NCBI GenBank assembly: GCA_018825985.1
Contig: JAHKAP010000002.1
Location: forward strand, 650-64,649
Reading direction: 5' to 3'
From: Candidatus Omnitrophota bacterium
GTDB taxonomy: Bacteria; Omnitrophota; Gorgyraeia; Gygaellales; Profunditerraquicolaceae
Length of the DNA stretch: 64,000 nt
Below the pieces are notes generated by a model. It did no database searches. It was not told the DNA's origin and saw only the letters and a program-made list of their open reading frames with translations. Below are positions 11,155 through 26,459 of the stretch, one piece after another. Positions within the stretch are counted from its first letter, which is position 1. Each line of letters begins with the position of its first letter. Position numbers and translations under genes: made by a program.

Positions 11155-11158
11155 GCAG

Positions 11159-11282
11159 AAATGGGGTCAGAATTATTTTTTCACAAAAGAATGGGGTCAG
11201 AATTATTTTTTTTCCTTATTTTGTTTTATAAAAAAATAATTCTGACCCCATTTCTAAAAAAATAATTCTGACCCCATTTTTT
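11159..11282. repeat. Composite palindrome: two direct copies of AATGGGGTCAGAATTATTTTTT followed by two inverted copies. Likely a bidirectional terminator or REP-like element. The same 22-mer pair recurs at 60627-60687.
   Basis: Direct copies at about 11160-11181 and 11190-11212; inverted copies AAAAAATAATTCTGACCCCATTT at about 11231-11253 and 11257-11279. Read directly from the sequence. Confidence 0.8.
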
Positions 11283-11317
11283 AAATACCATAAATTAATG
11301 GACTTAGGGATAGAAAA

Positions 11318-11326
11318 TGATATAAT
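11318..11326 (+). promoter_or_regulatory. Candidate extended -10 promoter (TGaTATAAT) for the atp/gsp cluster
   Basis: TG at 11318-19 and TATAAT at 11321-26, 37 nt upstream of the atpC-like start. An AAGG ribosome-binding site lies about 9 nt before the ATG at 11364. No good -35 hexamer. Confidence 0.35.
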
Positions 11327-11363: not shown

Positions 11364-11591
11364 ATGTTTGATGTATTAATCGTAACTACAGAAAAGGTTC
11401 TATTCGAGAATAAGGTAAAGAGCCTGGTTTTGCCCGGGGAACACGGGGTATTCGAAATATTAGATTACCATAAGCCGGTAATGGCCAGGCTTATGGGAGG
11501 CAATATCTTCGCCGGTGTAAACGTATTTAAGATCTGCCGGGGCATAGTTGGTTTTAGTAAAAATAAAGCAACGGTTATCGTCGAACAGTAA
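11364..11591 (+). CDS. atpC: F-type ATPase epsilon subunit, truncated form of 75 aa with the beta-sandwich domain only
   Basis: FDVLIVTTEKVLFENKVKSLVLPGEHGVFEILDYHKPVMARLMGG aligns with the E. coli epsilon N-terminal domain ([41 protein letters not shown]). The C-terminal helical hairpin is absent. Confidence 0.7.
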   Translation: MFDVLIVTTEKVLFENKVKSLVLPGEHGVFEILDYHKPVMARLMGGNIFAGVNVFKICRGIVGFSKNKATVIVEQ

Positions 11592-11603
11592 TTAGGCTAA
11601 GCG

Positions 11604-11680
11604 CAGGGACGGTTCTCATGCCAAAGCTAAAGTGTCCCCGAAAAGGGGACACTTTTAGAACAAATTGAGAACCGTCCCTG
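11604..11680. repeat. Nested palindrome, GGGACGGTTCT family copy A. Outer stem CAGGGACGGTTCTCA/TGAGAACCGTCCCTG; inner hairpin GTGTCCCCgaaaaGGGGACAC.
   Basis: Inverted repeats read directly. Sits between the atpC-like and atpE-like genes. Related copies at 25764-25806 and 37736-37812. Confidence 0.85.
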
Positions 11681-11711
11681 AATTGACTGACGGCAGGCAG
11701 GATGAGGGATC

Positions 11712-11924
11712 ATGGATAAGAACCTATCATTACTATTGATTTTTACCTCTTGTATTATAGGTCCGTGCTGGGTTTTTGCCGCTTGCGCGAAATCCAGCAT
11801 CAATGCTCTTGGACGTAACCCGTCCAGCGCACCCAAGGTTTTTATCGCAATGATCATTACCTTGATTTTCGCTCAGGCAGCGGCCTTGATCGCGATGCTT
11901 ATTGCGTTCCAATTATTCAGTTAA
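11712..11924 (+). CDS. atpE: F-type ATPase c-subunit-like proteolipid, 70 aa and two helices, with Gln at the position of the conserved ion-binding carboxylate
   Basis: Two hydrophobic helices joined by an ALGRNPSSAPK loop (compare ARQPE/ARNPE). The residue 20 positions after the loop Arg is Q (codon cag) where E/D is conserved. Helix 2 contains no acidic residue. A GAGGG ribosome-binding site lies upstream. Confidence 0.65.
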   Translation: MDKNLSLLLIFTSCIIGPCWVFAACAKSSINALGRNPSSAPKVFIAMIITLIFAQAAALIAMLIAFQLFS

Positions 11925-11939
11925 TTAAAGGGGTGATAT

Positions 11940-12668
11940 ATGCTAATTGTGTCTTTAGTAATTTTTCAGATAATAATCTTCATCACCTTGACTGTTGTAT
12001 TGCGTAAGCTGCTCGGACGCAATGTAACCAGCGCTACGGCCCATTTGGATTATTTGTCAGCGGAATTCGCCAGGAAAGAGAAAGAAGTCAAAGCCCAGTA
12101 TGATGAGGCTAAAAGACAGAGCCAGGAGATCCTGGCAAATGCTTTAAAAGACGCCGATTCTCAGAGGGAGAATATATTAAAAGAGGTTCAAAAGGAAAAA
12201 GAGAGAATAATTTCTGAGTCTCAAAATAAGGCTGATGAAATAGTAAAACAGGCGGATAAGGCCAGAGAGAATCTTTTGGCTGATATCAACCATCAGATAC
12301 AGAGTAAATCGCTCCAACAGGCTGTTAACCTGCTTCAATTATCTTTGCCGGAAAATATCAGGGTAGAAATCCACCGGCATTGGGTGGATGATCTAATCAA
12401 TAATACTTTTGAACAGTTAAGTAATATTCATATACCAGAGGGGACAACCGAGGCTAAGATAGTTACCCCTTTTGCGCTTACTCCAAAGCAGCGGGAAGCC
12501 TTAAATTCTAAGATCAAGGAAAAGCTGGGTTTTAATCTGGATCTTAAAGAAGAGATCGAGATGGGAGTAATCGCCGGATTAGTCGTTCATATCGGCAGTT
12601 TAGAATTAGATGGTAGTTTAAGATCTAAAATCCTGGAGGCGGGGCATGCCCAGCAAGCCAATGAATAA
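11940..12668 (+). CDS. atpF: F-type ATPase b-delta fusion: N-terminal TM helix and coiled coil (b), C-terminal OSCP/delta-like domain
   Basis: N-terminal TM helix LIVSLVIFQIIIFITLTVVL, then a charged coiled coil. The C-terminus LTPKQREALNSKIKEKLGFNLDLKEEIEMGVIAGLVVHIGSLELDGSLRSKILE resembles the delta C-terminus (..VDPSLIGG..V..GD.V.DGS....L). Confidence 0.6.
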   Translation: MLIVSLVIFQIIIFITLTVVLRKLLGRNVTSATAHLDYLSAEFARKEKEVKAQYDEAKRQSQEILANALKDADSQRENILKEVQKEKERIISESQNKADEIVKQADKARENLLADINHQIQSKSLQQAVNLLQLSLPENIRVEIHRHWVDDLINNTFEQLSNIHIPEGTTEAKIVTPFALTPKQREALNSKIKEKLGFNLDLKEEIEMGVIAGLVVHIGSLELDGSLRSKILEAGHAQQANE

Positions 12669-14139
12669 CGGCAGTAACGGCGACGCCCTCGTTAAATTTG
12701 ATGTCCGGGAGGCCGGAACTATTAAATCGGTCCGGGAGTGTATTATTCGGGTTAAAGGCCTTCCTTCTTGTATTAACGGCCAGATGATCGAATGCAGCCA
12801 GGGCGGGCAAGGAATGGTTTTAGGATTTAATGAAGAAGAAGCCCATATAATGGTTTTTAAGAGTAATGCCCCGCTACGCGCCGGAGATGAAGTATATAGC
12901 AAGGGCCAATTCCTGAATTTGCCGGTTGGTGAAAAATTTTTAGGCCGGGTAATTGATCCTCTTTGCGAACCGGTGGATAATTTAGGGCCAATCGAGCCGG
13001 ACGCGTTTTTTCCGGTATTCCGCGAGGCCCCTTCAGTTATGGACCGGGTTCCGGTCAAAGAGACATTAGAAACCGGGACCTTGCTTTTGGATGCGATTAT
13101 CCCAATTGCTAAAGGACAGAGGCAGCTTTTGATCGGCGACCGGCTTACCGGGAAGACTACAGTCGGGCTGGATGCTATCCTTAATCAGAAAGAAAGAGAA
13201 GTTATCTGTATTTATTGCAGTATTGGAAAGACATATTCGAGTTTAGTTAAAGTTCTCAATCTTTTTAAGGAAAAAGACGTAATGCCTTATACTATAGTGG
13301 TCAGCGGAGTGGCAGCGATCTCAATGGGTGAACAATACCTGGCTCCTTATACCGCGGTAACCTTAGGTGAATATTTTATGCAAAAAGGCAAGGATGTTTT
13401 TGTGGTTTTTGACGATCTCACCAAGCATGCCTGGATCTACCGGCAGATATCGCTTCTGATGGACCGGGCTCCGGGAAGAGAAGCTTATCCGGGAGATATA
13501 TTTTATATCCATTCTCAGATGATGGAAAGAGCCGGATATTTAAAACCGGAGTTAGGCGGTGGTTCAATGACTTTTTTTCCTATCGTGGATATTTTGCAGG
13601 GGGATGTTACCGGGTATGTCTCCAGTAACCTTATTTCAATGACTGATGGCCAGATCTATTTCTCAAGCGCGCTTTTTAATAAAGGAGTTAAACCGGCTAT
13701 AGACTTTGGGCTTTCAGTATCCCGTATCGGAAACAAGGCCCAATGGCCGGCAATGAAAGCGTTAAGCGGCAGGCTCAGGCTTGAGTATATCCAGTATCAG
13801 GAACTTTTACAGATGACCCAATTAAGGACTACGGGATTATCCAAAGAGGCAGAGGAGAGGATGAAGAGGGGGCAGGCAATGACCAATATCCTGATCCAGG
13901 CGAAGAATAACCCTATCAGTATGGAAACGGAAATAATCTTTTTGTTCGCTTTAAGCATCGGCGTATTGGATAATTTATCTGTAGCGGATGTCAATAAATT
14001 CAGGGTTGATTTTCCTAAACAGGCCCAGGAGTGGTTCCCGGAACTTTACGTTAACCTACGCCAAAGCCAGATCATGGATGATTCGGTGATCGCCCAACTG
14101 TATGAGGGATTGGGCAGGTATTTCCAGTCAACCGCCTAG
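12646..14139 (+). CDS. atpA: F1 ATPase alpha subunit
   Basis: Walker A GDRLTGKTTVGLDAILNQ. Conserved blocks QYLAPYTAVTLGEYF, DDLTKHAWIYRQISLLMDRAPGREAYPGDIFYIHS. Confidence 0.9.
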   Translation: MPSKPMNNGSNGDALVKFDVREAGTIKSVRECIIRVKGLPSCINGQMIECSQGGQGMVLGFNEEEAHIMVFKSNAPLRAGDEVYSKGQFLNLPVGEKFLGRVIDPLCEPVDNLGPIEPDAFFPVFREAPSVMDRVPVKETLETGTLLLDAIIPIAKGQRQLLIGDRLTGKTTVGLDAILNQKEREVICIYCSIGKTYSSLVKVLNLFKEKDVMPYTIVVSGVAAISMGEQYLAPYTAVTLGEYFMQKGKDVFVVFDDLTKHAWIYRQISLLMDRAPGREAYPGDIFYIHSQMMERAGYLKPELGGGSMTFFPIVDILQGDVTGYVSSNLISMTDGQIYFSSALFNKGVKPAIDFGLSVSRIGNKAQWPAMKALSGRLRLEYIQYQELLQMTQLRTTGLSKEAEERMKRGQAMTNILIQAKNNPISMETEIIFLFALSIGVLDNLSVADVNKFRVDFPKQAQEWFPELYVNLRQSQIMDDSVIAQLYEGLGRYFQSTA

Positions 14140-14163
14140 ATAAAATGGAAAATAAATATAGAG

Positions 14164-14243
14164 CACGGATTCTCACGGATTTTTATGCGGATTTACACAG
14201 ATTCATCCGTGTGCGTCCGTTATTTTATCCGTGTATATCCGCG
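14164..14243. repeat. Iteron-like array: CACGGAT-type direct heptamers followed by their inverted copies (ATCCGTG) at about 10-11 bp spacing
   Basis: CACGGAT, CACGGAT, GCGGAT, then ATCCGTG, (G)TCCGT, ATCCGTG, ATCCGCG. Between atpA and atpG. A homologous array lies at 37165-37247. Confidence 0.8.
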
Positions 14244-14269
14244 CCTAAGGCATTATTTATTATAGAAGA

Positions 14270-15121
14270 ATGAGATTACTTGCCCAGATAAAAAAGGACC
14301 TCGATTTTAATAATAATCTCTATAACCTGGTTGAGGTATTAAAGGAAATCTCTATATCCCAATACCGGATCATGGAGAAGAAGATCAAGTCATTTGATAA
14401 GGTTTTTAACGCGCTGGAGAGCCTTTTTGAGATGTTTGACCCGGAAAGCTCTAATCATCCGCTTATCAATACCGGCAACCGGCAGCCGGGAGTGATAGCT
14501 ATAACTTCAGATTCCGGGCTTTTGGGCGGTTTGAATATGCAGGTTATGAATTCAGCGGTTAAAGAAGCAGTTTCCTCCAGGGCTACATTGATAATAATCG
14601 GAGAAAAAGGTAAGGTTTTTGCTAAGGATAGCGGTTTACCTACAGTTAATTTTAAAGGGATCAAGGATGAAACCAGGTATGAGCAGGCCGTGGAGTTAAG
14701 GGATTTTATTGTCAAGGAGGAATTAGCCGGAAGGCTGGGCGCGTTAGAGATGATTTATCCGTATTCAATATCCTTATTTTCCCAACAGGTCCAGGTGATC
14801 AAGCTTTTGCCTTTTTCTAAGGCGGATAATATCCGGGTGAAAAATGAGGGGAGCTTTTATCCGGATATAATTTATGAATCTCCGATCGATGATGTCGTAG
14901 GTTACCTGATCTATCTTTTATTATCCCGTAAGTTTTATGAAACATTCGGCCTGGCCCGCCTGGCTGAGATGTCCGCGCGGTATATTCATTTGGAAAATTC
15001 CAAGACTAAGATTGAGCAGTTAAACAAAGAACTAAAAATGCAGTATTTCCGCACGCGCCATGAACTTATTGACCGGAATATCCGCGAGCTGTTTGCCTCG
15101 CGCTTAGCAGTCCATAATTAA
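14270..15121 (+). CDS. atpG: F1 ATPase gamma subunit (divergent)
   Basis: 283 aa, positioned between alpha and beta. Predicted N- and C-terminal helices (C-terminus LNKELKMQYFRTRHELIDRNIRELFASRLA). Similarity to gamma is weak but consistent. Confidence 0.55.
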   Translation: MRLLAQIKKDLDFNNNLYNLVEVLKEISISQYRIMEKKIKSFDKVFNALESLFEMFDPESSNHPLINTGNRQPGVIAITSDSGLLGGLNMQVMNSAVKEAVSSRATLIIIGEKGKVFAKDSGLPTVNFKGIKDETRYEQAVELRDFIVKEELAGRLGALEMIYPYSISLFSQQVQVIKLLPFSKADNIRVKNEGSFYPDIIYESPIDDVVGYLIYLLLSRKFYETFGLARLAEMSARYIHLENSKTKIEQLNKELKMQYFRTRHELIDRNIRELFASRLAVHN

Positions 15122-15123
15122 TT

Positions 15124-16512
15124 ATGAATAATAATGAAAAAGTAGGCCGTGTAATATCAGTTCAGGGACCGGTTGTGGATGTTAAATTTTCGTCCACAGA
15201 TGAAATACCGGACATACAGGAGAATATTAATACCGCTACCGTGGACGGACAAAGAATAGTTTTAGAGGTTGCCGAACATCTTCCGGGAAATATCGCCAGG
15301 TGTATCGCGATCAACTCCACTTTTAATTTACAGCGCAACTCGCCGGCCCATCCTACGGGCGAGGCGATCAAAGTTCCTGCCGGAGACAGCATTTATGGCA
15401 GGATTATAAATGTCTGGGGCGAGCCTCTTGACCAGAAAGGGCCGATAAACACCACGGAATGGCTTCCGATCCGCAGGCCCAGGTCAGATTTTAAGATCTA
15501 TTCCCAGAAGGAAAAAGTAAAATTTGAGATACTGGAGACCGGGGTTAAAGTAATCGACTTACTTTTCCCGCTGGTCAAGGGGAGCAAAAACGGGATCTTA
15601 GGAGGCGCGGCTTTAGGAAAAAGTATCCTTACCTTAGAGATCATCCATAATATTGTGCGTAAGACCCGGGGTTCCTGCGTCTTCGTGGGCGCGGGAGAGC
15701 GTATCCGCGAAGGTAATGAACTTTATCACGAACTCTCTCACCGTAATATTCTATCCCGCACCGTATTGATATACGGTCAGATGAATGAGCCTCCGGGAGC
15801 GCGTTTTGAAGTGGCGATGAGCGGGGTTACGCTGGCTGAGTCTATCCAGCGCAAGAATCAGGATGTCTTGCTTTTTGTGGATAACATTTTTCGTTTTTTA
15901 CAGGCTGGGGCCGAGATATCCAGCCTTTTAGGCAGGCTTCCTTCTGAAACCGGTTATCAGCCTACCCTGGTGGCTGAAGCCAGCGAGTTCCATGAAAGGA
16001 TCCGCACAACTAAAGAATCCGGGGGTTCCATTACTTCAATTGAAGCGGTTTATATTCCTGCCGATGACATTACAGATCCGGCAGTTGTAACCTTGTTCAG
16101 CTTTATGGATTCGATCATGGTCCTATCCCGTCAGAGAATACAGCTAGGGCTTTATCCGGCAATCGATCCCCTTCTATCTTCGAGCGCCAACCTGGACCCG
16201 GATGTTGTCGGCCGCCGGCATTATGAAATATCCCAGGAAGTTATCCGCGTGCTCCAGAGATACGAGGAATTGCGCCGCATCGTTATGGTTATTGGCATTG
16301 ATGAACTTTCCGCCGGGGACCGGACCATTTATGAAAGGGCCAGGAAGGTCCAGTATTTTATGACCCAGCCGTTCTTTGTCGCGGAGGCCTATACCGGGAA
16401 GATGGGTGAGTATGTTAGTGTAGAGCAGACCATTGAAGGCTGCGAAAAAATAATCTCAGGCCATCTCGATCGCAAGCCTGAGAATGATTTTTACATGATC
16501 GGAAAGGTGTAA
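15124..16512 (+). CDS. atpD: F1 ATPase beta subunit (divergent P-loop GGAALGKS)
   Basis: ETGVKVIDLLFPLVKGSKNGILGGAALGKS, VFVGAGERIREGNELYHE, YGQMNEPPGAR, LLFVDNIFRF.QAGAE.S.LLGR.PS..GYQPTL, IDELSAGDR (DELSEED-like). Confidence 0.9.
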   Translation: MNNNEKVGRVISVQGPVVDVKFSSTDEIPDIQENINTATVDGQRIVLEVAEHLPGNIARCIAINSTFNLQRNSPAHPTGEAIKVPAGDSIYGRIINVWGEPLDQKGPINTTEWLPIRRPRSDFKIYSQKEKVKFEILETGVKVIDLLFPLVKGSKNGILGGAALGKSILTLEIIHNIVRKTRGSCVFVGAGERIREGNELYHELSHRNILSRTVLIYGQMNEPPGARFEVAMSGVTLAESIQRKNQDVLLFVDNIFRFLQAGAEISSLLGRLPSETGYQPTLVAEASEFHERIRTTKESGGSITSIEAVYIPADDITDPAVVTLFSFMDSIMVLSRQRIQLGLYPAIDPLLSSSANLDPDVVGRRHYEISQEVIRVLQRYEELRRIVMVIGIDELSAGDRTIYERARKVQYFMTQPFFVAEAYTGKMGEYVSVEQTIEGCEKIISGHLDRKPENDFYMIGKV

Positions 16513-16516
16513 AAAT

Positions 16517-17005
16517 ATGTCAGGAGATCATAAACGTATCGGAGAGATATTGATCGAAAAAGGGTTGATCACTGAGGCCCAGTTGCATGATGCTTTAATG
16601 GAACAACAGGTAAATTCAAAATTTTTAGGGGCGATTCTGGTAAGCAAAAATTTGATCACCAATGATGATCTGATCGAGTCTTTGGCCAGTCAGTTCGGCA
16701 TCCCGCTGGTAGATATAAAGAGCCATTATGTAGATATGGAACTGGCCCGGAAATTCTCCTCATCGCTTATACTTGACCACAAATGTTTTCCTTTAATTGA
16801 AGATGAGTCAAGCGTGACCGTAGCGATCATTAATCCGCTGGATGCCTTGGCAATCAGCAAGATCGAAGAAGCTTGTATGCCCCGGGAAGTAAAATTAGTC
16901 CTGGTTAAAGAGGAAGATATGAAGAATGTCTTAGCCAGTTTCAGGCTATATATTAATAAGAGCATACAACAGATGCTGAAGAAAGATAAAAAGCCAAATG
17001 AATAA
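16517..17005 (+). CDS. Standalone MshEN / T2SS-E N-terminal domain protein with tandem c-di-GMP-binding-type motifs
   Basis: RIGEILIEKGLITEAQLHDALMEQQ and FLGAILVSKNLITNDDLIESLASQ match the MshEN motif RLGxxLxxxGxIxxxxLxxxLxxQ. The rest resembles the GspE N-terminal domain. Overlaps the next gene by 8 nt (ATGAATAA). Confidence 0.6.
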   Translation: MSGDHKRIGEILIEKGLITEAQLHDALMEQQVNSKFLGAILVSKNLITNDDLIESLASQFGIPLVDIKSHYVDMELARKFSSSLILDHKCFPLIEDESSVTVAIINPLDALAISKIEEACMPREVKLVLVKEEDMKNVLASFRLYINKSIQQMLKKDKKPNE

Positions 17006-19148
17006 AGTTGATTCGCTGCTTTATGACGCCCTGATCAATAAAGGGATAGCCGCAAAAGATACCCTTGACCTCCTGATTAAGGAATCCGATGGGAGTTCCC
17101 AGAACCTGGTATCGATATTAAGTAAGCGGGGCGATTACAGCGAAGCGCAGATACTGAAGGTCTTAGCTGAAAAAACCGGTTTGGCTTTCCTGGACCTTAA
17201 GAATGTTGCTGTGCCTGAAGACATCACGGAGAAAATACCAGTAAAGATCGCCACCTATTATCGATTTCTGCCTATAGAGATAAAAGGCAGGATTTTGATC
17301 TGCGCGGTATCGTATCCATTGGATATCAAGATCCAGGATGAGATCCGCAACCAGCTGGGGTATGATATCGAACTTGTTCTGGCGGTTACCGAGGATATAG
17401 TCGAAGGCTTGAGAAAATATTACGGCCTGGCTGCGGATACTCTTGAGAAAATCGTATCCCAGGTCCCTAAAGATAGCGCTTCTTATCAGGATCCGACTCA
17501 GAAGATCGATGATATTGAGAAATTGGCCGAAGACGCCTCGGTTATAAAATTGGTTAATCAGATAATCCTGGAGGCGTTTCGTAAGCGGGCGACTGATATC
17601 CATATTGAGCCGTTCAGGGAGAGCGTGGCCATCCGTTATCGTATCGACGGATTGCTTTATGACGCGAACATCCCGGCTGAGGTTAGGAATTTTCTGGGGG
17701 CGATCATTTCCAGGATCAAGATCATGTCAAATCTAAATATTGTTGAGCACCGTCTCCCCCAGGACGGAAGGGCAGTAGTAAAGGTCCAGGAGCAGATATT
17801 GGACTTAAGGATTTCTACTATACCTACTCCTTTTGGAGAGAGCGTGGTTATTCGTATTCTTCCGACACAAATGCTTTTCAGCCTGGAAAGACTAGGATTG
17901 TCCAAAGGTGATCTGACTGTATTTGAAGATCTGATCAAAAAACCGCACGGAATAATATTTGTGACCGGGCCTACCGGAAGCGGAAAGACCACTACACTTT
18001 ACGCCTCTTTGACCAGGATCAATACCCGGGACCGTAAAATAATCACTATCGAGGATCCTATTGAATATGAAATGTCCGGGATAACCCAGATCCAGGTAAT
18101 GCCGGAGATTGGCCTGGATTTTGCCAGGGGCCTTAGGAGCATGCTCCGTCATGATCCGGATGTAATAATGGTAGGAGAGGTTCGGGACTTAGAGACTGCG
18201 GAGATCGCTATCCGGGTAGCTCTCACCGGGCATTTGATATTTTCTACACTGCATACTAATGACGCAGCCAGCGGCATAACCCGTTTAGTTGATATCGGTT
18301 TGGAGCCATATTTAGTCGCTTCCAGCATTGAGGCTTTTGTGGCCCAGCGCTTGATCCGGTTGATCTGTCCGGATTGCAAATATGAGGATAAAGTAATCGC
18401 GAACGAAGTCCGGCAGTTGATCGCCGGAGAACTGGGATTAAAATCGCCCCAGGAGGTTAAATTATACCGAGGTAAAGGATGCGCCAACTGTAACTTCAGC
18501 GGATTCTTCGGCCGGACCGCAATCTATGAAATCCTTTTGGTAGATGAACAGACAAAAGAGCTGATTGTGAAGAAGTCAGCTTCTAACCGGATAAAAAATC
18601 TGGCTGTTTCTAAGGGTATGCGCACCTTGCGCCAGGATGGGTGGCAGAAAGTTATCAAGGGCCTGACCACTCCCGAAGAAGTAATGCGGGTAACTTCTAT
18701 AGAGGAGATCAGAGAAAAGCCCCGGGAAGAAATTATTAGTCCGGGTATTGCCATTCGCGAAGATGAACAGAGCCGTCCGCTTTTGGATTCGGAAAGAAGG
18801 ATTTATAATCGTTTAGGAAGCAAGATAAACCTGCGTTATAAACCTTTTAAGAATGTTCAGGAATTGACTGATCGGGGATTTACCCTTGAGCAATTGAGCG
18901 TAACCAGGAATATTTCCGCCGGGGGCATATTATTTGTTTCTTCGGAGATCATTAATATCGGCACTTTCCTGGAATTAAAATTAGAATTGCCGAATAATGA
19001 AGAAGTGGTCAATTGTTTGGCCAGGGTGGTGCGGGTTGAAGAGCTTGCCGAAGGCAAGAGTTATGATGTGGCGGGAGTTTTTCTGGATATTACTTCTGCC
19101 CAGCGGGCCCGTTTAGATAAATATGTAATTAAAGGACTTGAGGAATAA
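16998..19148 (+). CDS. gspE: GspE/PilB-family secretion/pilus assembly ATPase with a C-terminal PilZ domain
   Basis: N-terminal GspE_N-like domain. Walker A GPTGSGKTTTLYA. Tetracysteine CPDC...CANC. The C-terminal roughly 120 aa carry the PilZ motifs RIYNR (RxxxR) and NISAGG (D/NxSxGG). Confidence 0.85.
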   Translation: MNKVDSLLYDALINKGIAAKDTLDLLIKESDGSSQNLVSILSKRGDYSEAQILKVLAEKTGLAFLDLKNVAVPEDITEKIPVKIATYYRFLPIEIKGRILICAVSYPLDIKIQDEIRNQLGYDIELVLAVTEDIVEGLRKYYGLAADTLEKIVSQVPKDSASYQDPTQKIDDIEKLAEDASVIKLVNQIILEAFRKRATDIHIEPFRESVAIRYRIDGLLYDANIPAEVRNFLGAIISRIKIMSNLNIVEHRLPQDGRAVVKVQEQILDLRISTIPTPFGESVVIRILPTQMLFSLERLGLSKGDLTVFEDLIKKPHGIIFVTGPTGSGKTTTLYASLTRINTRDRKIITIEDPIEYEMSGITQIQVMPEIGLDFARGLRSMLRHDPDVIMVGEVRDLETAEIAIRVALTGHLIFSTLHTNDAASGITRLVDIGLEPYLVASSIEAFVAQRLIRLICPDCKYEDKVIANEVRQLIAGELGLKSPQEVKLYRGKGCANCNFSGFFGRTAIYEILLVDEQTKELIVKKSASNRIKNLAVSKGMRTLRQDGWQKVIKGLTTPEEVMRVTSIEEIREKPREEIISPGIAIREDEQSRPLLDSERRIYNRLGSKINLRYKPFKNVQELTDRGFTLEQLSVTRNISAGGILFVSSEIINIGTFLELKLELPNNEEVVNCLARVVRVEELAEGKSYDVAGVFLDITSAQRARLDKYVIKGLEE

Positions 19149-20367
19149 TATGATCTATAAATATAAGGCTAAGAACGGACCGGAAAATTCAGTAGAAGGA
19201 AAGATATCCGCCCAGTCAGAAAATGATGCGATCGAAAAAATTACCCAAATGGGCTATGTGCCGGTAAGCATCCAGGAAGAAGCCCAAAATCAAAGGCAAT
19301 CCAGGGTTTTTAATCTAAATTTTAGCTTCGCCAGGGTTAGTTCTCAAGACATAACGATTTTTAGTTCTCAATTGGCCAGCCTGCTTAAATCCGGAGTGCC
19401 TTTTTTGAATGCCATAAACATAATATCCGAACAGTCGGAGAACCCGAATTTCAAGAATGTTCTTAAGAACATCCACAATATAGTAAAAGAAGGGTCTGAT
19501 TTTTCTACAGCCCTTAGCCAATATCCTTCAGTTTTTTCCCCGCTTTACCTGGCTATGGTGCGCACCGGTGAAAATAGCGGGCAGCTGCCGGAAGTGCTTT
19601 TAAAGATTGCGGAATACCGCAAGAAACAGGAGGAGGTGCTCTCACGCCTGCGCATGGCCATGGCCTATCCGATCCTGATGGTAATCGTTGGTTTAGGGAC
19701 GATTATTTTTATGTTAACTTTTGTTATTCCCCGCCTAACCAGGCTTTATTCGAACATGGGCCAGGTATTACCCCTGCCAACCAGGATCCTGATAGCTTTA
19801 AGCGATGGATTAAGACAGTGGTGGTTATGGATAGTAATATTTTTAGTGCTTTTGGTTACTCTTATCCGGCGTCAGGCTCAGACTGATGCGGGCAGGTTAT
19901 CGATTAGTATCCTTAAACTGCGCCTGCCGATCTTCGGTAAATTAATGCTTAAATCTGAATTAGGCCGGTTTTGCCGGACCCTGGAGTTATTGATAAAAAG
20001 CGGAGTGCCGATCCTGCGGGCGATCCACATAAGTATACCGGTTTTAGGCAATGAGGTTATAAAATTAAAATTCAAGAAAAGCTATAAAGACCTGGAACAG
20101 GGCGGTTCTTTCGGATCAAGCCTTAAGGATTCCAGGGTAATACCGGTATTTATGAGTAATCTCATTATAGTTGGCGAGCAATCCGGCAGGCTTTATGAGG
20201 CCCTGGCTGAAGTCGCGGGTACTTATGAGCGCGATACTGATGAGGCTATTAAGACCATGAGCAGCCTTTTGGAGCCGATAATGGTTTTGGTAATGGGCCT
20301 GGTCGTGGGATTTATTGTAGTAGCTATGCTTTTACCGATATTTGAGATCAATATGATGGTGCGTTAG
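19138..20367 (+). CDS. gspF: GspF/PilC-family inner-membrane platform protein
   Basis: 409 aa. Two T2SS-F-type repeats (..LLKSGVPFLNAI.., ..LIKSGVPILRAI..) and 3 TM segments. Confidence 0.85.
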   Translation: MRNNMIYKYKAKNGPENSVEGKISAQSENDAIEKITQMGYVPVSIQEEAQNQRQSRVFNLNFSFARVSSQDITIFSSQLASLLKSGVPFLNAINIISEQSENPNFKNVLKNIHNIVKEGSDFSTALSQYPSVFSPLYLAMVRTGENSGQLPEVLLKIAEYRKKQEEVLSRLRMAMAYPILMVIVGLGTIIFMLTFVIPRLTRLYSNMGQVLPLPTRILIALSDGLRQWWLWIVIFLVLLVTLIRRQAQTDAGRLSISILKLRLPIFGKLMLKSELGRFCRTLELLIKSGVPILRAIHISIPVLGNEVIKLKFKKSYKDLEQGGSFGSSLKDSRVIPVFMSNLIIVGEQSGRLYEALAEVAGTYERDTDEAIKTMSSLLEPIMVLVMGLVVGFIVVAMLLPIFEINMMVR

Positions 20368-20422
20368 TATGGAAAATATAAAGAGGGTATTTATTACTGA
20401 TAACGGTAAAGAGGCTTAAGTA

Positions 20423-21292
20423 GTGCCTATTATCGTAGTTCCGAAGAAAATAACCCTCCTTTTGCTCATACTTTCAATTCTTTGTTCAATAAACAGCTCA
20501 GCGGCTTCAGACTGGAAAGAATTAAGTAGCGAGCATTTTATACTTTATTATATGAACGATGAAAATTTTTCTTCTCAGGTTTTGAATAAAGCTGAGAATT
20601 ATTATCAGCGGATCGCTTCGGACCTGGGCTATGCCAGGAATTCTAACTTTTGGACCTGGAATAATAGAGCAAAGATATATATATATCCCGATCACGGTTC
20701 TTTTATGAGATCAACCGGCCAGCCTGACTGGTCTAAAGGGATGGCTGATTATAATAAAAAGGAGATAGTCAGCTTTTTGGGTTCGGGAAGTTTTGTAGAA
20801 TCGATATTGCCGCATGAGATGACTCATTTGATCTTTCGGGATTTTGTGGGATTTAAGGGTGAGATCCCGCTCTGGCTGGAAGAGGGCATCGCTCAGTGGG
20901 AAGAAGAGAAAGACAGGGAGATGTTTAGGGATTATCTCGGGAAATATCTGAGCAAGAATCTCCTTATATCCCTAGAAGAGCTCAATGTCCTGGATATACG
21001 AAACATTAAAAAAGAAGACCGGCTTTATTTAAGGGTAATATACGCCGGCGAGTCTAAGGGATTTCCGGTATTCTTAAGCGGGGATAATCTGGTTAAAGTA
21101 TATTATATGGAATCGGTGTCTATAGTAAGTTTTCTTATTGAAATATACGGAACGGATAGTTTTGTTTCCCTCTGCCGCGGATTGCGGGAAGGAAAAACTT
21201 TTGCGGACGCTTTAAAATCAGCTTATTCTCCGTTGATAAATTCTATGTCAGAACTTGAAAATAAATGGATTGAATATCTGCGGAAGTTTTAA
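20423..21292 (+). CDS. Secreted HExxH zinc-metallopeptidase-like protein (HEMTH...EEG), GTG start, signal peptide
   Basis: N-terminal MPIIVVPKKITLLLLILSILCSINSSAASDW resembles a signal peptide. Motifs LPHEMTHLIF and EEGIAQW. Embedded between gspF and gspG. Confidence 0.5.
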   Translation: MPIIVVPKKITLLLLILSILCSINSSAASDWKELSSEHFILYYMNDENFSSQVLNKAENYYQRIASDLGYARNSNFWTWNNRAKIYIYPDHGSFMRSTGQPDWSKGMADYNKKEIVSFLGSGSFVESILPHEMTHLIFRDFVGFKGEIPLWLEEGIAQWEEEKDREMFRDYLGKYLSKNLLISLEELNVLDIRNIKKEDRLYLRVIYAGESKGFPVFLSGDNLVKVYYMESVSIVSFLIEIYGTDSFVSLCRGLREGKTFADALKSAYSPLINSMSELENKWIEYLRKF

Positions 21293-21312
21293 CTAAGCAA
21301 GGGAGGTATTTT

Positions 21313-21717
21313 ATGAAAAGGATTAAAGGCTTTACACTTATCGAATTGATGCTGGTCGTTGTAATTATTGGGGCATTGGTAGCTATGGTAATGCCGCGGC
21401 TGACCGGCAGAAGCGAGCAGGCCAGGACTACCGCCGCTTCAGCTGATATCCAGGCTAATATCGCTACCGCTTTAAAGCTTTACGAACTGGATAACGGCAA
21501 TTTTCCTACCACGGAAGAAGGTTTAAACGCCCTTTTAACCAGGCCGGCTAGCGCGAGGAATTGGAGCGGGCCATATTTAGAGAGAAAGCCGATTGACCCT
21601 TGGGGCAGGGAATATAATTATAAGTGCCCGGGTGAACACCGGCCGGCGGATTATGATTTGTATTCTTTAGGCAAGGATGGCGCAGAAAGCCCCGATGATG
21701 TTAAAAACTGGGAATAA
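21313..21717 (+). CDS. gspG: GspG-like major pseudopilin with prepilin leader
   Basis: KGFTLIELMLVVVIIG prepilin cleavage/methylation motif (G|F, E+5). C-terminal DPWGREYNY..PG....DYDLYSLGKDG..SPDD is GspG-like. Confidence 0.85.
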   Translation: MKRIKGFTLIELMLVVVIIGALVAMVMPRLTGRSEQARTTAASADIQANIATALKLYELDNGNFPTTEEGLNALLTRPASARNWSGPYLERKPIDPWGREYNYKCPGEHRPADYDLYSLGKDGAESPDDVKNWE

Positions 21718-22096
21718 AGGGTTTACACTAATTGAGGTGTTAGTTGCTGCCGCGGTTTTATCCTTGGGATTGGTATTTATTTACGAAGCTTTTTTTATCT
21801 CGTTGGATACCTTTAGATATTATTCGGATTACCTGAATATCGCTCCCAAAGCGGAGGAAATACTCTGGCTCACTCAGGATTCGCTGATCCGTACAGGCGT
21901 GGTTTATAATATGGACCAGGCAGGAGGATCAGTAATAAACGACAGCAGCGGTATTCTCTTGAATTTTAATATAGCCAGTAGCCTTGTAGATGACAAATAC
22001 GGCCTTTACGAGGTTGGTTTAAATGCTGTTTGGAAGAATGGAAAAAGATTGCGCAGCACAACCCGGGACAGTTATGTTATCCGCCAAATTAAATAA
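21695..22096 (+). CDS. Minor pseudopilin with prepilin leader
   Basis: MMLKTGNKGFTLIEVLVAAAVLSLGL. Start placed at the ATG at 21695, in frame with track ORF 21677. Confidence 0.7.
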   Translation: MMLKTGNKGFTLIEVLVAAAVLSLGLVFIYEAFFISLDTFRYYSDYLNIAPKAEEILWLTQDSLIRTGVVYNMDQAGGSVINDSSGILLNFNIASSLVDDKYGLYEVGLNAVWKNGKRLRSTTRDSYVIRQIK

Positions 22097-22151
22097 CCGT
22101 CCCGCACCTTCTAAAAAATTAAATGATTTTAAAACAAATGGTTTTAGTATT

Positions 22152-22730
22152 ATGAATAGAAAAGAAGGTGCGGGGTTCACCCTTATAGAGTTATTGATGG
22201 TTGTTTCAATGCTTTCAGTCATCTCCCTGGCTATTTTTTCTACTTTTAATAACGGGATAAAAATCTGGCAGAAGGTTAATAAACAATCAGATCGCGAGGA
22301 TATCAATATTTTTCTTGATAAGTTTGTCTCGGACTTGAGGAACACCCTTAGTTTTACCGGAATAAGTTTTATCGGGACTGAAAATAAAATCAGCTTTCCC
22401 CGTATAGTTAATAGCAAAAACCTGGTTGTGAATACGGTCGGTAGGATTATTTACAGTTATGATGACGGGGCGCGTTTAATTTTCCGCCAGCAGCAGGATT
22501 TTTCTCAGGTTGCCACAGATAAAGAATCTTTTAACCAGAGAGTATTAGGAAATGTTACATCGTTTAGATTCCAATATTATCATTATGATACCGATAAAAA
22601 AGAATATCTTTGGCTTAAAGAATGGAATAGTTTGCAGACGCCTTTAGCGGTAAGAATCGAATTCGAGAATTTAAATAAAGATAAAAAGGCTGAATTTACA
22701 AGAAGTGTTTTTATACCGGTAGGTTTCTAA
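22152..22730 (+). CDS. Minor pseudopilin (GspJ-like size) with prepilin leader
   Basis: MNRKEGAGFTLIELLMVVSMLSVISLAIF. Start at the ATG at 22152 inside track ORF 22023. Confidence 0.7.
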   Translation: MNRKEGAGFTLIELLMVVSMLSVISLAIFSTFNNGIKIWQKVNKQSDREDINIFLDKFVSDLRNTLSFTGISFIGTENKISFPRIVNSKNLVVNTVGRIIYSYDDGARLIFRQQQDFSQVATDKESFNQRVLGNVTSFRFQYYHYDTDKKEYLWLKEWNSLQTPLAVRIEFENLNKDKKAEFTRSVFIPVGF

Positions 22731-22732
22731 GA

Positions 22733-23749
22733 ATGCTGAAAAAAAATAACCCCGCTCTTAAGGCGAGCATACTAATTATTAGCCTTTGGACGGTTTGTTT
22801 GCTGTCCATATTTTGCGTGTATTTAGGGTATAATGTCCGGCAAAAGATAACTCTGGTCAAGCGCCTGGAAGAGAGGAATAAGCTTTATTATATCGCCGAC
22901 GCGGGGGTAAAAAAAGCGATTGTCTGTTTGTTAGGCGTTGATCCGGAAATTGAGTATATGGCGCTCAATGGTGATTGGGCAGATAACCCCGGGCTATTCC
23001 AGGACATTGATTTTAATGGAGGAAGTTTTAGCGTCGGCTATAATTATTCTTCCGGAGGCGCAACTCAGACCAGATACGGACTGGTAGACGAGGAGCGCAA
23101 GGTGAATATAAACACGGCTGATGCCGGAGTGCTGCGGCGTTTATTTCAATTAGTTCTAAATTTTTCGGAAGGGGAGGCCTCAGGCTTAGCTTATTCGATT
23201 ATTGATTGGAGGGATAGCGACAACCAGTTATCCGACTCCGCAAGAGGAGCAGAGTCCGCCTATTATCATTCGCTTAAATACCCTTATAGCTGCAAGAATT
23301 CCGAATTTGAGATTTTAGAAGAGGTCCTTCTTATTAAAGGAATGAGTGAGGATATTTCTAACAAGATCAAAGACTATATTACTATATACGGCGATGGGCG
23401 GGTAAACATTAATACCGCGTCTTTGGAGGTTTTACTGGCTTTGGGATTAAGCCCGAAGATCTGCGCTGATATAATCGAATTTAGAAAAGGTAAGGACGCG
23501 GCAGAAGGCACAACCGATGATAATTTTTTTTCTCAAAATTCGGATATTGCCACGCGCCTTCAAACAAGGTATAATTTAAACCAAATAGAAATGGCTGAAG
23601 TAGAGAGCGTGGCCTCAAATTACCTGTCGTGTAATTCGTTTTTTTTTATGATCCGCAGTGTCGCCAGGCTCACAGATAAAAAGAATCAACTGGAAGTAAT
23701 TTGCGTTGTCAACAGGTTGGGTGATATTTTATATTGGCGGGAGACGTAA
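22733..23749 (+). CDS. gspK: GspK-like pseudopilin tip protein
   Basis: N-terminal KASILIISLWTVCLL hydrophobic segment lacking E5. Two KVNINTA-type helix-hairpin-helix motifs (RKVNINTADAGVL, RVNINTASLEVL). Confidence 0.7.
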   Translation: MLKKNNPALKASILIISLWTVCLLSIFCVYLGYNVRQKITLVKRLEERNKLYYIADAGVKKAIVCLLGVDPEIEYMALNGDWADNPGLFQDIDFNGGSFSVGYNYSSGGATQTRYGLVDEERKVNINTADAGVLRRLFQLVLNFSEGEASGLAYSIIDWRDSDNQLSDSARGAESAYYHSLKYPYSCKNSEFEILEEVLLIKGMSEDISNKIKDYITIYGDGRVNINTASLEVLLALGLSPKICADIIEFRKGKDAAEGTTDDNFFSQNSDIATRLQTRYNLNQIEMAEVESVASNYLSCNSFFFMIRSVARLTDKKNQLEVICVVNRLGDILYWRET

Positions 23750-25197
23750 TGTTTATATCGGGAATCAGGCGAAGGGACCTGGTAGGAATAGAGTTCGGCG
23801 CTAATAAGCTTAAACTTGCTTATCTGCGTTGTTTAGGCGGCAAACGGGAATTAGCCGGTGTTGTCAGTAAAGATACGCTCGGATGCTCGGATACCGATAT
23901 CTCGGGTGTTATTCTTGCCTTTCTTAACCAGCATAATATCAAGAACCCGGAGTTTATCAGTGTCATATCATCCAGCTCGGTAATAACTAAGAACATAGAA
24001 GTGCCCTCGGTTGATCCCCAAGAGATCAAGGGGATCATAAATCTCCAGGCTGCCAGGCATACGCCTTATTCCCGCGAAGAGATCATCGTCGACTATATAG
24101 ATATAGGTAATTATAAAAATAACTATACCAAAATATTGCTGGTGATAGTAGTCTCGAGCCTTATAAAAAAATACGTTGAAATCTTAGGGGGGGCCGGTTT
24201 AGGGATTGAAAAAGTACTTTTGGCGTCCGAGGGTATGGCCTGGGCCGCTATGCATATCCTTAAAGTCGAAAATAAGGATATCCCTGTTTGCCTTCTGCAC
24301 ATAGATGAGAATTCTAGCGATTTTGCGATTGTCTTTAAGAATAAATTGGCCTTTATCCGCTCTATACCTATAGGGGCTAAGGCGCTATCGGGTGAGTTCG
24401 ATATACAAAAGGATAAATATTGCGAAGAAGTAAAAAAATCCATGGAATCATATCAAGGCGAGGACATAGAAAAAAATCCCGGGAGTATTTTGATTACCGG
24501 GGCTATTGATGGGCTAAAAGGCCTTGAAACCGCTTTATCCCTGGCGTTGAATAAGGATAGCCGGGTGGTCCCGTATTTAAGGAATATTTCTATTTCTAAA
24601 GATCTTTTAAAAAGCATAGATGTATCAGCGGCTTCATATTTTAATCTGGTGAGCCCTCTATTGGCTTGTGATGATATGTTGGTTGATCTTATTCCCGAAG
24701 AGGCAAAGATAAAAAAAGAGCTTGAGGCCAGGGGAAGGGACTTGATTAAAAGCGGGATTCTAGTCCTGACTTTTTTTATTCTGGTATTTTTTATTTTAAT
24801 GAGCAAAATTTATTTTAAAAGTTTTTATTTAAATAAAATCGACTCCCGCTATAAAGGTATCAATCAGGAAGCCTCTAAACTGGAGAAAGATTTTGACCGG
24901 ATAAACCTGATTAAGAATTATCTGGGGAAAAGGGGGTATCCTCTGGAGATCTTGACTGAGATTTACGGACTTTTACCACTGCAGATAGAATTAAGCGATC
25001 TGCGTTTCGACGAACAAGGAAAATTCGTAGTCCGGGGGAGTGCGGAATCGATGTCCACGGTTTTTAGTTTCGTTGACGAAATGGAGAGGTCTAAATATTT
25101 TAAAGACGTAAAGACCAAGTATACCACCCGGCGCAAGCAGGATAAGAAGGATGTTACCGATTTTGAGATAAACTGCCTGCTGGAAAAGGAAGGATAA
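23734..25197 (+). CDS. GspL-like / PilM-PilN fusion: cytoplasmic actin-like domain, TM helix, periplasmic domain
   Basis: N-terminal LVGIEFGANKLKLAYL (PilM-like). TM helix ILVLTFFILVFFILMS near residue 340, then a periplasmic segment of about 130 aa. Confidence 0.6.
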   Translation: MAGDVMFISGIRRRDLVGIEFGANKLKLAYLRCLGGKRELAGVVSKDTLGCSDTDISGVILAFLNQHNIKNPEFISVISSSSVITKNIEVPSVDPQEIKGIINLQAARHTPYSREEIIVDYIDIGNYKNNYTKILLVIVVSSLIKKYVEILGGAGLGIEKVLLASEGMAWAAMHILKVENKDIPVCLLHIDENSSDFAIVFKNKLAFIRSIPIGAKALSGEFDIQKDKYCEEVKKSMESYQGEDIEKNPGSILITGAIDGLKGLETALSLALNKDSRVVPYLRNISISKDLLKSIDVSAASYFNLVSPLLACDDMLVDLIPEEAKIKKELEARGRDLIKSGILVLTFFILVFFILMSKIYFKSFYLNKIDSRYKGINQEASKLEKDFDRINLIKNYLGKRGYPLEILTEIYGLLPLQIELSDLRFDEQGKFVVRGSAESMSTVFSFVDEMERSKYFKDVKTKYTTRRKQDKKDVTDFEINCLLEKEG

Positions 25198-25754
25198 TGA
25201 TAAAACTAGAGGCCATCAATTCATTCCTGGCCCGTTTGAACAAAAGAGAAAAGCTTATCTTGTACTGCGCTCTAGCCGTTATCTCGCTGACCCTCTTGGA
25301 CCGGCTGGTTATAAGTCCGGTAACATCCAGGATCCAGGGATTATCAGCAGAGATTCTTGATAAACATACCGCTATTAAAAGAAGCTTAAAGATCCTATCT
25401 CAAAAAGACAAAATATTGGCTGAGGCCGCTAAGTATAACCCTTATCTCGATGGGTTAAAAAGCGAAGATGAAGAGATGACCAGCATATTAAGGGAGATCG
25501 AAGGGTTGGCGAACAAAAGCTCGGTTTATCTGTTCGATCTCAAACCCTCCGGGGTAAAGGATATGGGCCCGTTTAAGAAATATTTTGTAACCTTAAGCTG
25601 CGAGGCTCAGGTTGAGCAGCTGGTTGGATTTTTTTATGGAATAGAGAATTCCGATAAATTGCTTTCGATCGATAAATATCAATTGATGCCCAAATCCAGC
25701 GAATCATCTGTGGCTAAATGCTCGATGACCATCTCTAAAATGACATTGCCTTAA
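25197..25754 (+). CDS. GspM/PilO-like bitopic inner-membrane component
   Basis: 185 aa. N-terminal TM helix LILYCALAVISLTLL, then a soluble domain. Position after the GspL-like gene. Confidence 0.5.
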   Translation: MIKLEAINSFLARLNKREKLILYCALAVISLTLLDRLVISPVTSRIQGLSAEILDKHTAIKRSLKILSQKDKILAEAAKYNPYLDGLKSEDEEMTSILREIEGLANKSSVYLFDLKPSGVKDMGPFKKYFVTLSCEAQVEQLVGFFYGIENSDKLLSIDKYQLMPKSSESSVAKCSMTISKMTLP

Positions 25755-25763
25755 GAAAACGCC

Positions 25764-25815
25764 GGGACGGTTCTATGCTAAATAGCGATTCGAATAGAAC
25801 CGTCCCTAAATTTTT
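25764..25815 (+). terminator. Intrinsic terminator-like hairpin (GGGACGGTTCT family copy B) followed by a T-run
   Basis: GGGACGGTTCTAT...ATAGAACCGTCCC stem (25764-25776 and 25794-25806), then TAAATTTTT. Ends the atp/gsp cluster. Confidence 0.6.
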
Positions 25816-25825
25816 AAAAAAAAGG

Positions 25826-25997: not shown

Positions 25998-26070
25998 GCT
26001 GGAGTAGCTCAGTTGGTAGAGCACGTCCTTGGTAAGGACGGGGTCGCGGGTTCGATTCCCGTCTCCAGCT
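25998..26070 (+). tRNA. tRNA-Thr (anticodon GGT)
   Basis: Cloverleaf GCTGGAG/CTCCAGC acceptor, GCTC..GAGC D-arm, anticodon stem CGTCC/GGACG with loop TTGGTAA, GTTCGATTCC T-arm. No encoded CCA. Confidence 0.9.
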
Positions 26071-26102
26071 TAGCTAATCCAAGATAATTTGAAAAATAAG
26101 TC

Positions 26103-26177
26103 ATGATTCCAGTGATTAAAAGGCAGATTACGGAGAATAAAACAATCGCTGAAATCTTATTTAAAATCTTTGTAATC
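26103..26177. repeat. Conserved intergenic element ATGATTCCAGnGATTAAAAGnCAGATTAC...AATCGCTGnAATCTT...AAAATCTTTGTAATC, copy 1 of 3
   Basis: Highly similar copies at 47061-47137 and 55277-55367. Contains AGATTAC/GTAATCT-type inverted segments. Confidence 0.8.
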
Positions 26178-26190
26178 AGTAACTAATAAT

Positions 26191-26340
26191 ATGCGTGAAA
26201 TTATTACATTAGAGTGTACGGTCTGTAAAAACAGAAATTACACTACGACCAAAAATAAGAAGAAGCACCAGGAAAAACTTGAAATTAAGAAATTCTGCAA
26301 GTGTTGCCGCAAGCATACTGTGCATAAAGAAATAAAATAG
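26191..26340 (+). CDS. rpmG: 50S ribosomal protein L33
   Basis: Translates to [49 protein letters not shown]. Not in the ORF track because it is short. Confidence 0.85.
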
Positions 26341-26360
26341 CTCTAGTTAGTTCGGGTAAT

Positions 26361-26431
26361 AGGAGCGTCGGTTAATGGCAAACCAACGGTCTCCAAAACC
26401 GTAACTGCAGGTTCGACTCCTGCCGCTCCTG
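26361..26431 (+). tRNA. tRNA-Trp (anticodon CCA)
   Basis: AGGAGCG/CGCTCCT acceptor, anticodon stem ACGGT/ACCGT with loop CTCCAAA, T-arm GCAGGTTCGACTCCTGC. Classic position before secE. Confidence 0.85.
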
Positions 26432-26459
26432 AAAAAAAGAGCCGGGCTTAAAGAAAAAA

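Follow-up and report, generated by a model that had tools for sequence, protein, structure and literature searches.

The window analysed here, a 64,000-nucleotide stretch of contig JAHKAP010000002.1 from a Candidatus Omnitrophota bacterium (NCBI GenBank assembly GCA_018825985.1, positions 650 to 64,649 of the forward strand), carries at 11364-25754 a cluster of sixteen consecutive plus strand open reading frames (ORFs), in which six genes for an F1-like ATPase run directly into the genes of a pseudopilus system; the 3' part of a giant gene lies just upstream (table 1). ORF calling, with Pfam and NCBIfam searches for the identities, bore out both the number of genes and the assignments given in an earlier reading of the same DNA (the original prediction). 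The intergenic distances are, in gene order, 120, 15, -23, 130, 2, 4, -8, -11, 55, 20, -41, -74, 2, -16 and -1 nt. The beta stop (16512) and the start of the stand-alone MshEN gene (16517) are 4 nt apart, as had been predicted, and the GspE gene lies about 0.5 kb from the beta stop. The further claim that all gaps are 100 bp or less fails at epsilon-c (120 nt) and alpha-gamma (130 nt), the other thirteen being at most 55 nt or overlapping. An identical beta is present on NCBI assembly GCA_018827765.1, and the homologues with a source name in the gamma and GspE searches are labelled Candidatus Omnitrophica or Omnitrophota.

Table 1. Genes and sequence elements at the locus, in window coordinates. 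E-values are from Pfam unless another source is named; scores with a cut-off are from NCBIfam. aa, amino acids; TM, transmembrane; z, z-score.
Feature	Position	Strand	Description
Giant gene, 3' part	1..11154	+	At least 3,717 codons, open to window start; ORF and frame check
Double hairpin	11157..11282		~22-nt unit AATGGGGTCAGAATTATTTTTT in two direct and two inverted copies, then U run; -62.6 kcal/mol, z -11.5
Sigma-70-like promoter candidate	11299..11326	+	TGGACT, 16 nt, TATAAT, upstream TG; consensus match only
epsilon	11364..11591	+	75 aa, N-terminal beta-sandwich only; ATP-synt_DE_N 3e-10, covering 2-78 of 80
REP-like nested palindrome	11604..11680		Epsilon-c gap; -52.8 kcal/mol, z -6.4
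c subunit	11712..11924	+	70 aa; ATP-synt_C 9e-8; Gln55 replaces ion-binding Glu/Asp; RNP loop kept
b/delta fusion	11940..12668	+	242 aa; N-terminal TM helix, b-like helix, C-terminal OSCP/delta-like domain
alpha	12646..14139	+	497 aa; Pfam match; passes TIGR00962 atpA (510.7, cut-off 484.45)
Palindromic insert	14151..14261		Alpha-gamma gap; 2+2 ATCCGTG-type arms, 22-nt spacing; -41.6 kcal/mol, z -4.7
gamma	14270..15121	+	283 aa, divergent; ATP-synt 5e-35; below TIGR01146 (92.5, cut-off 194.45)
beta	15124..16512	+	462 aa; passes TIGR01039 atpD (565.6, cut-off 462.85)
Stand-alone MshEN	16517..17005	+	162 aa; MshEN 1e-13; c-di-GMP_motif 64.8 (cut-off 38)
GspE-type ATPase	16998..19148	+	716 aa; N-terminal MshEN, T2SSE 5e-130, C-terminal PilZ
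GspF/PilC-type platform	19138..20367	+	T2SSF 4e-62; GspF 384.8 (cut-off 424), PilC 304.7 (cut-off 700)
MA-clan zinc metallopeptidase	20423..21292	+	289 aa; hydrophobic N-terminus; Peptidase_MA_2 4e-15
GspG major pseudopilin	21313..21717	+	134 aa; passes TIGR01710 (143.5, cut-off 88.85)
Minor pseudopilin	21677..22096	+	Prepilin-type N-terminus; N_methyl 6e-8
GspJ-like minor pseudopilin	22023..22730	+	T2SSJ 2.5e-6 and N_methyl
GspK-like minor pseudopilin	22733..23749	+	T2SSK_1st 3e-16; below T2SS_GspK (88.3, cut-off 130)
PilM-PilN fusion	23734..25197	+	GspL-like architecture; PilM_2 3e-11, PilN 1e-8
GspM/PilO-like	25197..25754	+	T2SSM_b 2.7e-4; below GspM (33.9, cut-off 60)
Terminator-like hairpin and T/A run	25764..25822	+	13-bp GC-rich hairpin 25764-25806; -25.7 kcal/mol, z -4.2

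A scan of one genome per species with a gamma profile found a relative in 104 genomes, and 80 loci (gamma identity 40-63%) were kept. Neighbouring genes were counted by tblastn with the window proteins, the denominators being the species-level loci with room for the gene in question. GspE lies 3' of beta in 57 of 57 loci, GspF is present in 48 of 49, the MA-clan peptidase in 40 of 46 and GspG in 38 of 46; on the other side, a homologue of the C-terminal part of the giant protein lies 5' of epsilon in all 41 loci. The reverse approach, in which contexts were picked through GspE (loci L091 and L092 and one ENA contig), gave three contexts, and in each of them the six ATPase genes, the MshEN gene and the giant gene lie upstream. 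Because the 57/57 and 41/41 counts and the contexts chosen through GspE agree, the conserved unit spans three modules, namely the giant protein, the F1-like ATPase and the pseudopilus system. The proposed tight linkage of the last two is thus confirmed and is reciprocal (57/57 through gamma, 3/3 through GspE), and the unlinked relatives that would have spoken against it did not turn up. The giant gene, which the original prediction overlooked, is as conserved a neighbour of the ATPase as the pseudopilus genes are. Most genomes that carry the locus bear Omnitrophota titles; some carriers (L012, L021, L024, L038 and others, and P0244) are titled "uncultured Planctomycetales/Planctomycetia", "Deltaproteobacteria" or "Patescibacteria group", and these titles on metagenome-assembled genomes (MAGs) are probably loose or wrong labels.

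The visible part of the giant protein is repetitive, with beta-sandwich and coiled-coil regions and a Pfam match to the Ig-like Kre9_KNH domain (4e-16). It has one hydrophobic segment (aa 3626-3654 of the visible part), a C-terminal TM helix that is followed by a tail of about 35 aa. An AlphaFold2 model of the last 799 aa predicts beta-sandwiches alternating with long helical segments, and then the TM helix. The top Foldseek matches of this model are repeats of large bacterial adhesins and macroglobulin domains, at a TM-score of about 0.1, a weak generic likeness. The search for full-length homologues returned 34 partial "hypothetical" fragments.

Within the ATPase module gamma, epsilon, c, b and delta all score under the curated canonical NCBIfam cut-offs that alpha and beta pass. 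Median identities in the family are 66% for c, 46% for epsilon, 45% for gamma and 38% for b/delta, and all those of the 353 gamma homologues that are listed with a source name are called Omnitrophica or Omnitrophota. The b/delta fusion matches Pfam ATP-synt_B over residues 4-117 (6e-5) and OSCP over residues 153-231 (1e-13), and NCBIfam alt_F1F0_F0_B aligns over residues 7-228 with a score under its cut-off. The P-loop, E192/R193, D253 and DELSxxD of beta, and the P-loop and arginine finger (R360) of alpha, are invariant in 72 loci. To judge by these residues the F1 head looks catalytically intact, that is ATP-hydrolysing and gamma-driving, with its torque-transmitting motifs kept. Epsilon lacks the C-terminal inhibitory helices, and its open frames in the family, counted from stop to stop, are 74-122 long (median 80). 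In canonical enzymes those helices inhibit ATP hydrolysis, so their loss fits a hydrolysis-driven motor, and we infer that the complex is such a motor rather than a synthase.

The membrane part of the complex is reduced to the c subunit and the single stalk protein b/delta. HMMER alignments place Gln55 of c on the ion-binding Glu of solved c subunits, and in 58 family members this column holds E in 28, Q in 22, V, L and S in two each, and A and F in one each; at least 17 changes are required on a neighbour-joining tree of alpha plus beta. The ALGRNPS loop of c is conserved in the family, and the gene lies between epsilon and b/delta in 53 of the 53 loci that cover this position. Going by these alignments, the ion site of c is demonstrably dispensable while the subunit itself is structurally conserved. 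A gene for subunit a was found neither in the window locus nor in any related locus, the search having covered the loci and not the rest of the genome, and just epsilon, c and b/delta separate the giant gene from alpha in every locus that covers this stretch, with a sole insertion in L011. Since the locus has no subunit a, coupling to an ion gradient is not expected; and since Gln55 falls on the ion-binding Glu and the column varies within the family as well, the F1-like ATPase is very likely incompetent for ion translocation, which supports the original prediction on this point. Two hiding places for subunit a were considered and rejected: the enlarged gaps of relatives, where the L011 insert is a toxin-antitoxin-like pair, and the C-terminus of the giant protein, which has one TM helix and no ATP-synt_A match. 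The L011 insert (1401-3002, between c and b/delta, in one species) is a nucleotidyltransferase/HEPN-like pair, and L011 also has a RelE/ParE-like ORF 5' of epsilon, both as read from the sequence. A 2026 preprint describes V/A-type ATPase genes in most Gorgyraeia and gamma as rarely detected by strict KEGG Orthology (KO) thresholds, which is consistent with a separate chemiosmotic enzyme beside a divergent F1-like set.

In the pseudopilus module the best NCBIfam matches of four proteins are GspE, GspF, GspK and GspM, each below its equivalog cut-off; for the GspE-type ATPase the scores are 588.7 as GspE (cut-off 630.25) and 549.7 as PilB (cut-off 675.65). Because GspG passes its type II secretion system (T2SS) cut-off, and the scores of GspE and GspF are better for the T2SS families than for PilB and PilC, the sequence comparison suggests that the filament module is T2SS-like rather than like a type IVa pilus. 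Of all the genes in the cluster GspG is the best conserved (median identity 78%), and we take this to favour an internal, periplasmic pseudopilus over an exposed pilus. The sixteen genes include neither GspC nor the GspD secretin nor the prepilin peptidase GspO (the downstream part of the window was judged by ORF size and order, and these genes may be elsewhere), and neither a PilT retraction ATPase nor a PilQ secretin is in the locus. The cyclic di-GMP (c-di-GMP) receptor motifs are well kept: G9, L12, L23 and Q30 of MshEN are invariant in 53 loci, and in the PilZ domain of GspE RxxxR is invariant and NxSxxG nearly so. As these motifs are conserved, control of the machine by c-di-GMP is likely. 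All of the 120 best GspE homologues listed have the MshEN-GspE-PilZ architecture, and an outgroup with GspE-PilZ outside the linkage, which we looked for, was not reached among them. The HExxH motif and the downstream Glu of the MA-clan peptidase are invariant in 43 loci. In some relatives genes for sensor kinases, PAS/GAF proteins, response regulators and response regulator-PilZ proteins lie between GspF and the peptidase (L008 16276-18477, L091 14398-22133 and the ENA ERZ1426844 contig); in L091 an Alginate_exp outer-membrane beta-barrel gene and signalling genes follow the peptidase, with no pseudopilin genes within the stretch fetched.

Several palindromes lie between the genes. The double hairpin directly 3' of the giant gene, before epsilon, is absent from the relatives, where the giant-epsilon gap is 3 nt (L091) or about 19 nt (L092). 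The original prediction placed the first terminator-like structure at 25764; the hairpins at 11604-11680 and 14151-14261 are inside the cluster, so that this part of it was mistaken. Both inserts are lineage-specific, since the relatives have gaps of about 0-3 nt at epsilon-c and alpha-gamma. The first of them has GGGACGGTTCT...AGAACCGTCCC arms in common with the element at 25764, where a hairpin and T/A run are indeed present at the predicted terminator, as a copy of a family resembling repetitive extragenic palindromes (REP). This family has three copies, all intergenic, the third at 37738-37810 in the rpsG-fusA gap (just upstream of the presumed fusA), with outer arms CAGGGACGGTTCT...AGAACCGTCCCTG and, in two copies, an inner GTCCCC-loop-GGGAC hairpin; the REP-like arm has 7 matches against 0.7 expected. 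The promoter predicted at 11318 has a site behind it (11299-11326), but that it is the single one is not demonstrable from the sequence because promoter-like consensus matches in the region are near chance (41 seen, 34 expected); terminator-like matches are likewise near chance (23 seen, 16 expected).

Downstream of the cluster lie tRNA-Thr and tRNA-Trp, and then a run of plus strand ORFs that resembles secE-nusG-ribosomal-rpoBC as judged by ORF sizes and order. The cluster thus ends just 5' of the two tRNA genes and the secE-like and nusG-like ORFs (25998-26654), and L092 has annotated secE-nusG-rplK in the same position (20493-22145), so that the chromosomal placement is kept in at least one distant relative. 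An Rfam scan of the window found the two tRNAs only, with no c-di-GMP riboswitch or other Rfam element. Nearly all long ORFs of the window (1-64000) are on the plus strand, and in each 2-kb bin the GC skew is above zero, with a monotonic rise of the cumulative skew; we read the window as leading strand from this strand bias and skew.

On balance we favour the view that the window holds one instance of the "symbiotic" F-type ATPase/type IV filament locus of the Omnitrophota, and that this locus specifies an ATP-driven, c-di-GMP-gated host-contact apparatus. An ion-blind c-ring as rotor and b/delta as stator would anchor the F1 head to the inner membrane, and the complex would work as an ATP-hydrolysing rotary or mechanical motor. 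Together with the giant adhesin-like protein and the pseudopilus machine, itself gated by c-di-GMP, this motor would form one cell-surface apparatus, which would probably serve for contact with host or prey cells, for holding them or for movement on them. In principle such a motor would resemble the F1-like ATPases that work for surface systems in mycoplasmas. Several points weigh against this view. Glu persists at the c site in about half of the family, where residual ion binding may occur; the absence of subunit a applies to the loci, and its gene may be elsewhere in the MAG. The locus and window have no secretin, prepilin peptidase or retraction ATPase, which leaves the output of the pseudopilus machine undefined. 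Strong hairpins lie on both sides of epsilon, toward the giant gene and toward c, so that expression as a single transcript is uncertain in the window. Finally, no Rosetta-stone fusion between ATPase and pseudopilus genes occurs in the 80 loci, and physical contact of the ATPase with the pseudopilus or the giant protein is pure conjecture.

A more specific mechanism can be offered tentatively, and we hold it to be rather doubtful. ATP-driven rotation of gamma/epsilon and the ion-blind c-ring against b/delta might be passed, within the inner membrane, to a substitute for subunit a, which would make the complex the diderm counterpart of the mycoplasma surface motors. This torque partner could be the giant adhesin, through its C-terminal TM anchor, or the GspF/GspL/GspM platform. 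If this were true, it would be the first classical c-ring to serve as a torque transducer and not as an ion turbine.

The strongest competing explanation, unlikely in our judgement yet a serious one, is that the modules are co-regulated and physically separate, and are adjacent since they are needed in the same condition, for example an attached, high-c-di-GMP state. The absence of fusions between the modules would be expected if this were so, and lineage-specific hairpins and insertions of regulatory genes are tolerated between the genes, with promoter-like sites inside the cluster. Against it, gene order conserved over such divergence usually marks genes with interacting products, and here the order is kept in 57/57 and 41/41 loci down to 40% gamma identity, with gaps that are often 0-4 nt. 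It is distinctly improbable that the F1-like complex, in analogy to FliI6-FliJ-FliH of type III export, is an ATPase that exports or unfolds the giant protein or the substrates of the pseudopilus and not a motility motor. The giant gene is always adjacent, and b/delta and gamma could act in the roles of FliH and FliJ, a comparison that follows the analogy of the original prediction and rests on established family homology. However, the complex still has its heteromeric alpha/beta head, its c subunit and the torque loop DELSxxD, which would indicate rotation against a membrane rotor rather than docking to an export gate; the locus has no homologue of such a gate, and the scores against FliI/SctN models are far under the cut-offs. 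That the genes encode an ordinary chemiosmotic F1Fo ATP synthase which merely adjoins a T2SS-like operon and has its atpB elsewhere is scarcely credible. In its favour, alpha and beta reach the cut-offs of canonical atpA and atpD, Glu is found in the c subunit of 28 of the 58 family members, and the evidence against atpB comes from the loci and not from whole genomes. Against it, c carries Gln55 in this genome and one of V, L, A, S or F in other members of the family, epsilon is truncated, no locus has an a gene, gamma, epsilon, c, b and delta are under the canonical cut-offs, and Seymour et al. (PMC10066038) placed alpha in a "symbiotic" clade distinct from the "respiratory" one.

F-type rotary ATPases are commonly regarded as ion-coupled enzymes. 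At this locus an F1 with its catalytic residues intact, a recognisable c and a stalk are kept, the ion path is dropped, and the genes are tied to those of a pseudopilus machine and a giant surface protein. The Omnitrophota are a widespread and uncultured phylum of ultra-small bacteria, probably with a predatory or parasitic way of life. If the modules act together as we favour, an ATP synthase would have been repurposed into a mechanical motor with its rotor kept, and this could explain how these bacteria fasten on to host cells or attack them.

How does the locus compare with known systems? Its likeness to canonical F1Fo lies in alpha and beta, which pass atpA and atpD, and in the homologues of gamma, epsilon, c, b and delta; circular permutation of the canonical order a-c-b-delta-alpha-gamma-beta-epsilon gives the order of its genes. 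It differs in having no subunit a, no conserved c carboxylate, b and delta fused, and an epsilon without its C-terminal domain. The scores against N-ATPase models are all below the cut-offs (alpha 492 against 750, beta 497 against 752, gamma 34 against 282 and b 41 against 225), and there are no extra genes for AtpQ, AtpR or a between epsilon and c. The FliI-FliH-FliJ complex is alike in that an ATPase related to F1 works for a secretion or assembly machine and does not make ATP; this is an analogy only, since the T3SS (type III secretion system) ATPase is a homohexamer without a c-ring, and the window proteins reach about 160-190 bits where the FliI/SctN cut-offs are 380-620. A T2SS is resembled in the GspE, F, G, J, K and M homologues, the GspL-like PilM-PilN fusion and the short, highly conserved GspG, and departed from in the C-terminal PilZ of GspE, the embedded extra MshEN protein and MA-clan peptidase, and in most components being under their equivalog cut-offs. 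As for the type IVa pili, the PilB and PilC scores are below their cut-offs and no PilT or PilQ is in the locus.

In function the nearest precedent comes from mycoplasmas, whose Type 3 F1-like X0 ATPase co-purifies with the MIB-MIP surface system and is needed for it (Berlureau 2026, PMC12994834; Beven 2012, PMC3369863). There too an atypical F-type ATPase cluster systematically co-occurs with, and adjoins, genes of a surface-protein system. Mycoplasma X0 consists of a 12-TM protein and others, without recognisable c, b or delta, whereas c and b/delta are clearly recognisable in the window, and its partner is an Ig-binding protein and protease pair rather than a pseudopilus machine and a giant protein. 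A tree-based clustering is reported in PMC10066038. We judged the affinity to the mycoplasma enzymes by hidden Markov model (HMM) cut-offs and PDB bit scores; alpha stays below the MSC_0619 cut-off (310.5 against 520) and beta below that of MSC_0618 (393.1 against 570). Gli349 and Gli521 are very large leg proteins of Mycoplasma mobile that are anchored by a TM segment. The gliding motor of this organism (the Type 2 F1-like or G1-ATPase, MMOB1660/1670; ATPase in PMC8406192) likewise combines an F1-derived mechanical motor with very large surface proteins. The window proteins do not reach the Type 2 cut-offs (alpha 407.3 against 600, beta 404.5 against 850), and beta scores about 490 bits against canonical F1 but 338 bits against the solved beta of G1-ATPase (9io5), so that it is nearer to the former; the motor genes in the window are linked to a T2SS-like cluster, which mycoplasmas do not have.

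The nearest relatives by gene content are in the same phylum. Seymour et al. (2023, Nat Microbiol, PMC10066038) reported that genes for a "symbiotic", non-respiratory F-type ATPase (sF-ATP) adjoin type-4a pilus clusters in every Omnitrophota class, with such loci in 56 of 111 Velamenicoccia species and co-location within 10 kb in 57 of 66 contigs, and proposed a role in host attachment or motility. The window locus belongs to this group both by its phylum and by its co-location of ATPase and filament genes. The genomic association of ATPase and pilus was thus already published in 2023, and because these authors had described F-type ATPase/type-4 pilus loci, the claim of the original prediction that no such system had been described falls. 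They name a type-4a pilus as the partner, whereas in the window GspG passes the T2SS cut-off and GspE and GspF fit better as T2SS proteins. The words "c-ring" and "subunit a" do not occur in their main text, which treats giant ORFs separately from the loci. A different Tad/T2SS-like locus, with gspD and rcpC beside multi-TM giant genes, was described by West-Roberts et al. (2023) with no mention of ATP synthase. Relative to the literature compared, the points added here are the family-wide evidence that the ion site of c can be dispensed with in the presence of an intact F1, the lack of a subunit a gene in the loci, and the obligate giant-protein neighbour. The sequence evidence for a loss of ion coupling and the obligate giant neighbour sharpen the hypothesis of a surface motor and make it directly testable.

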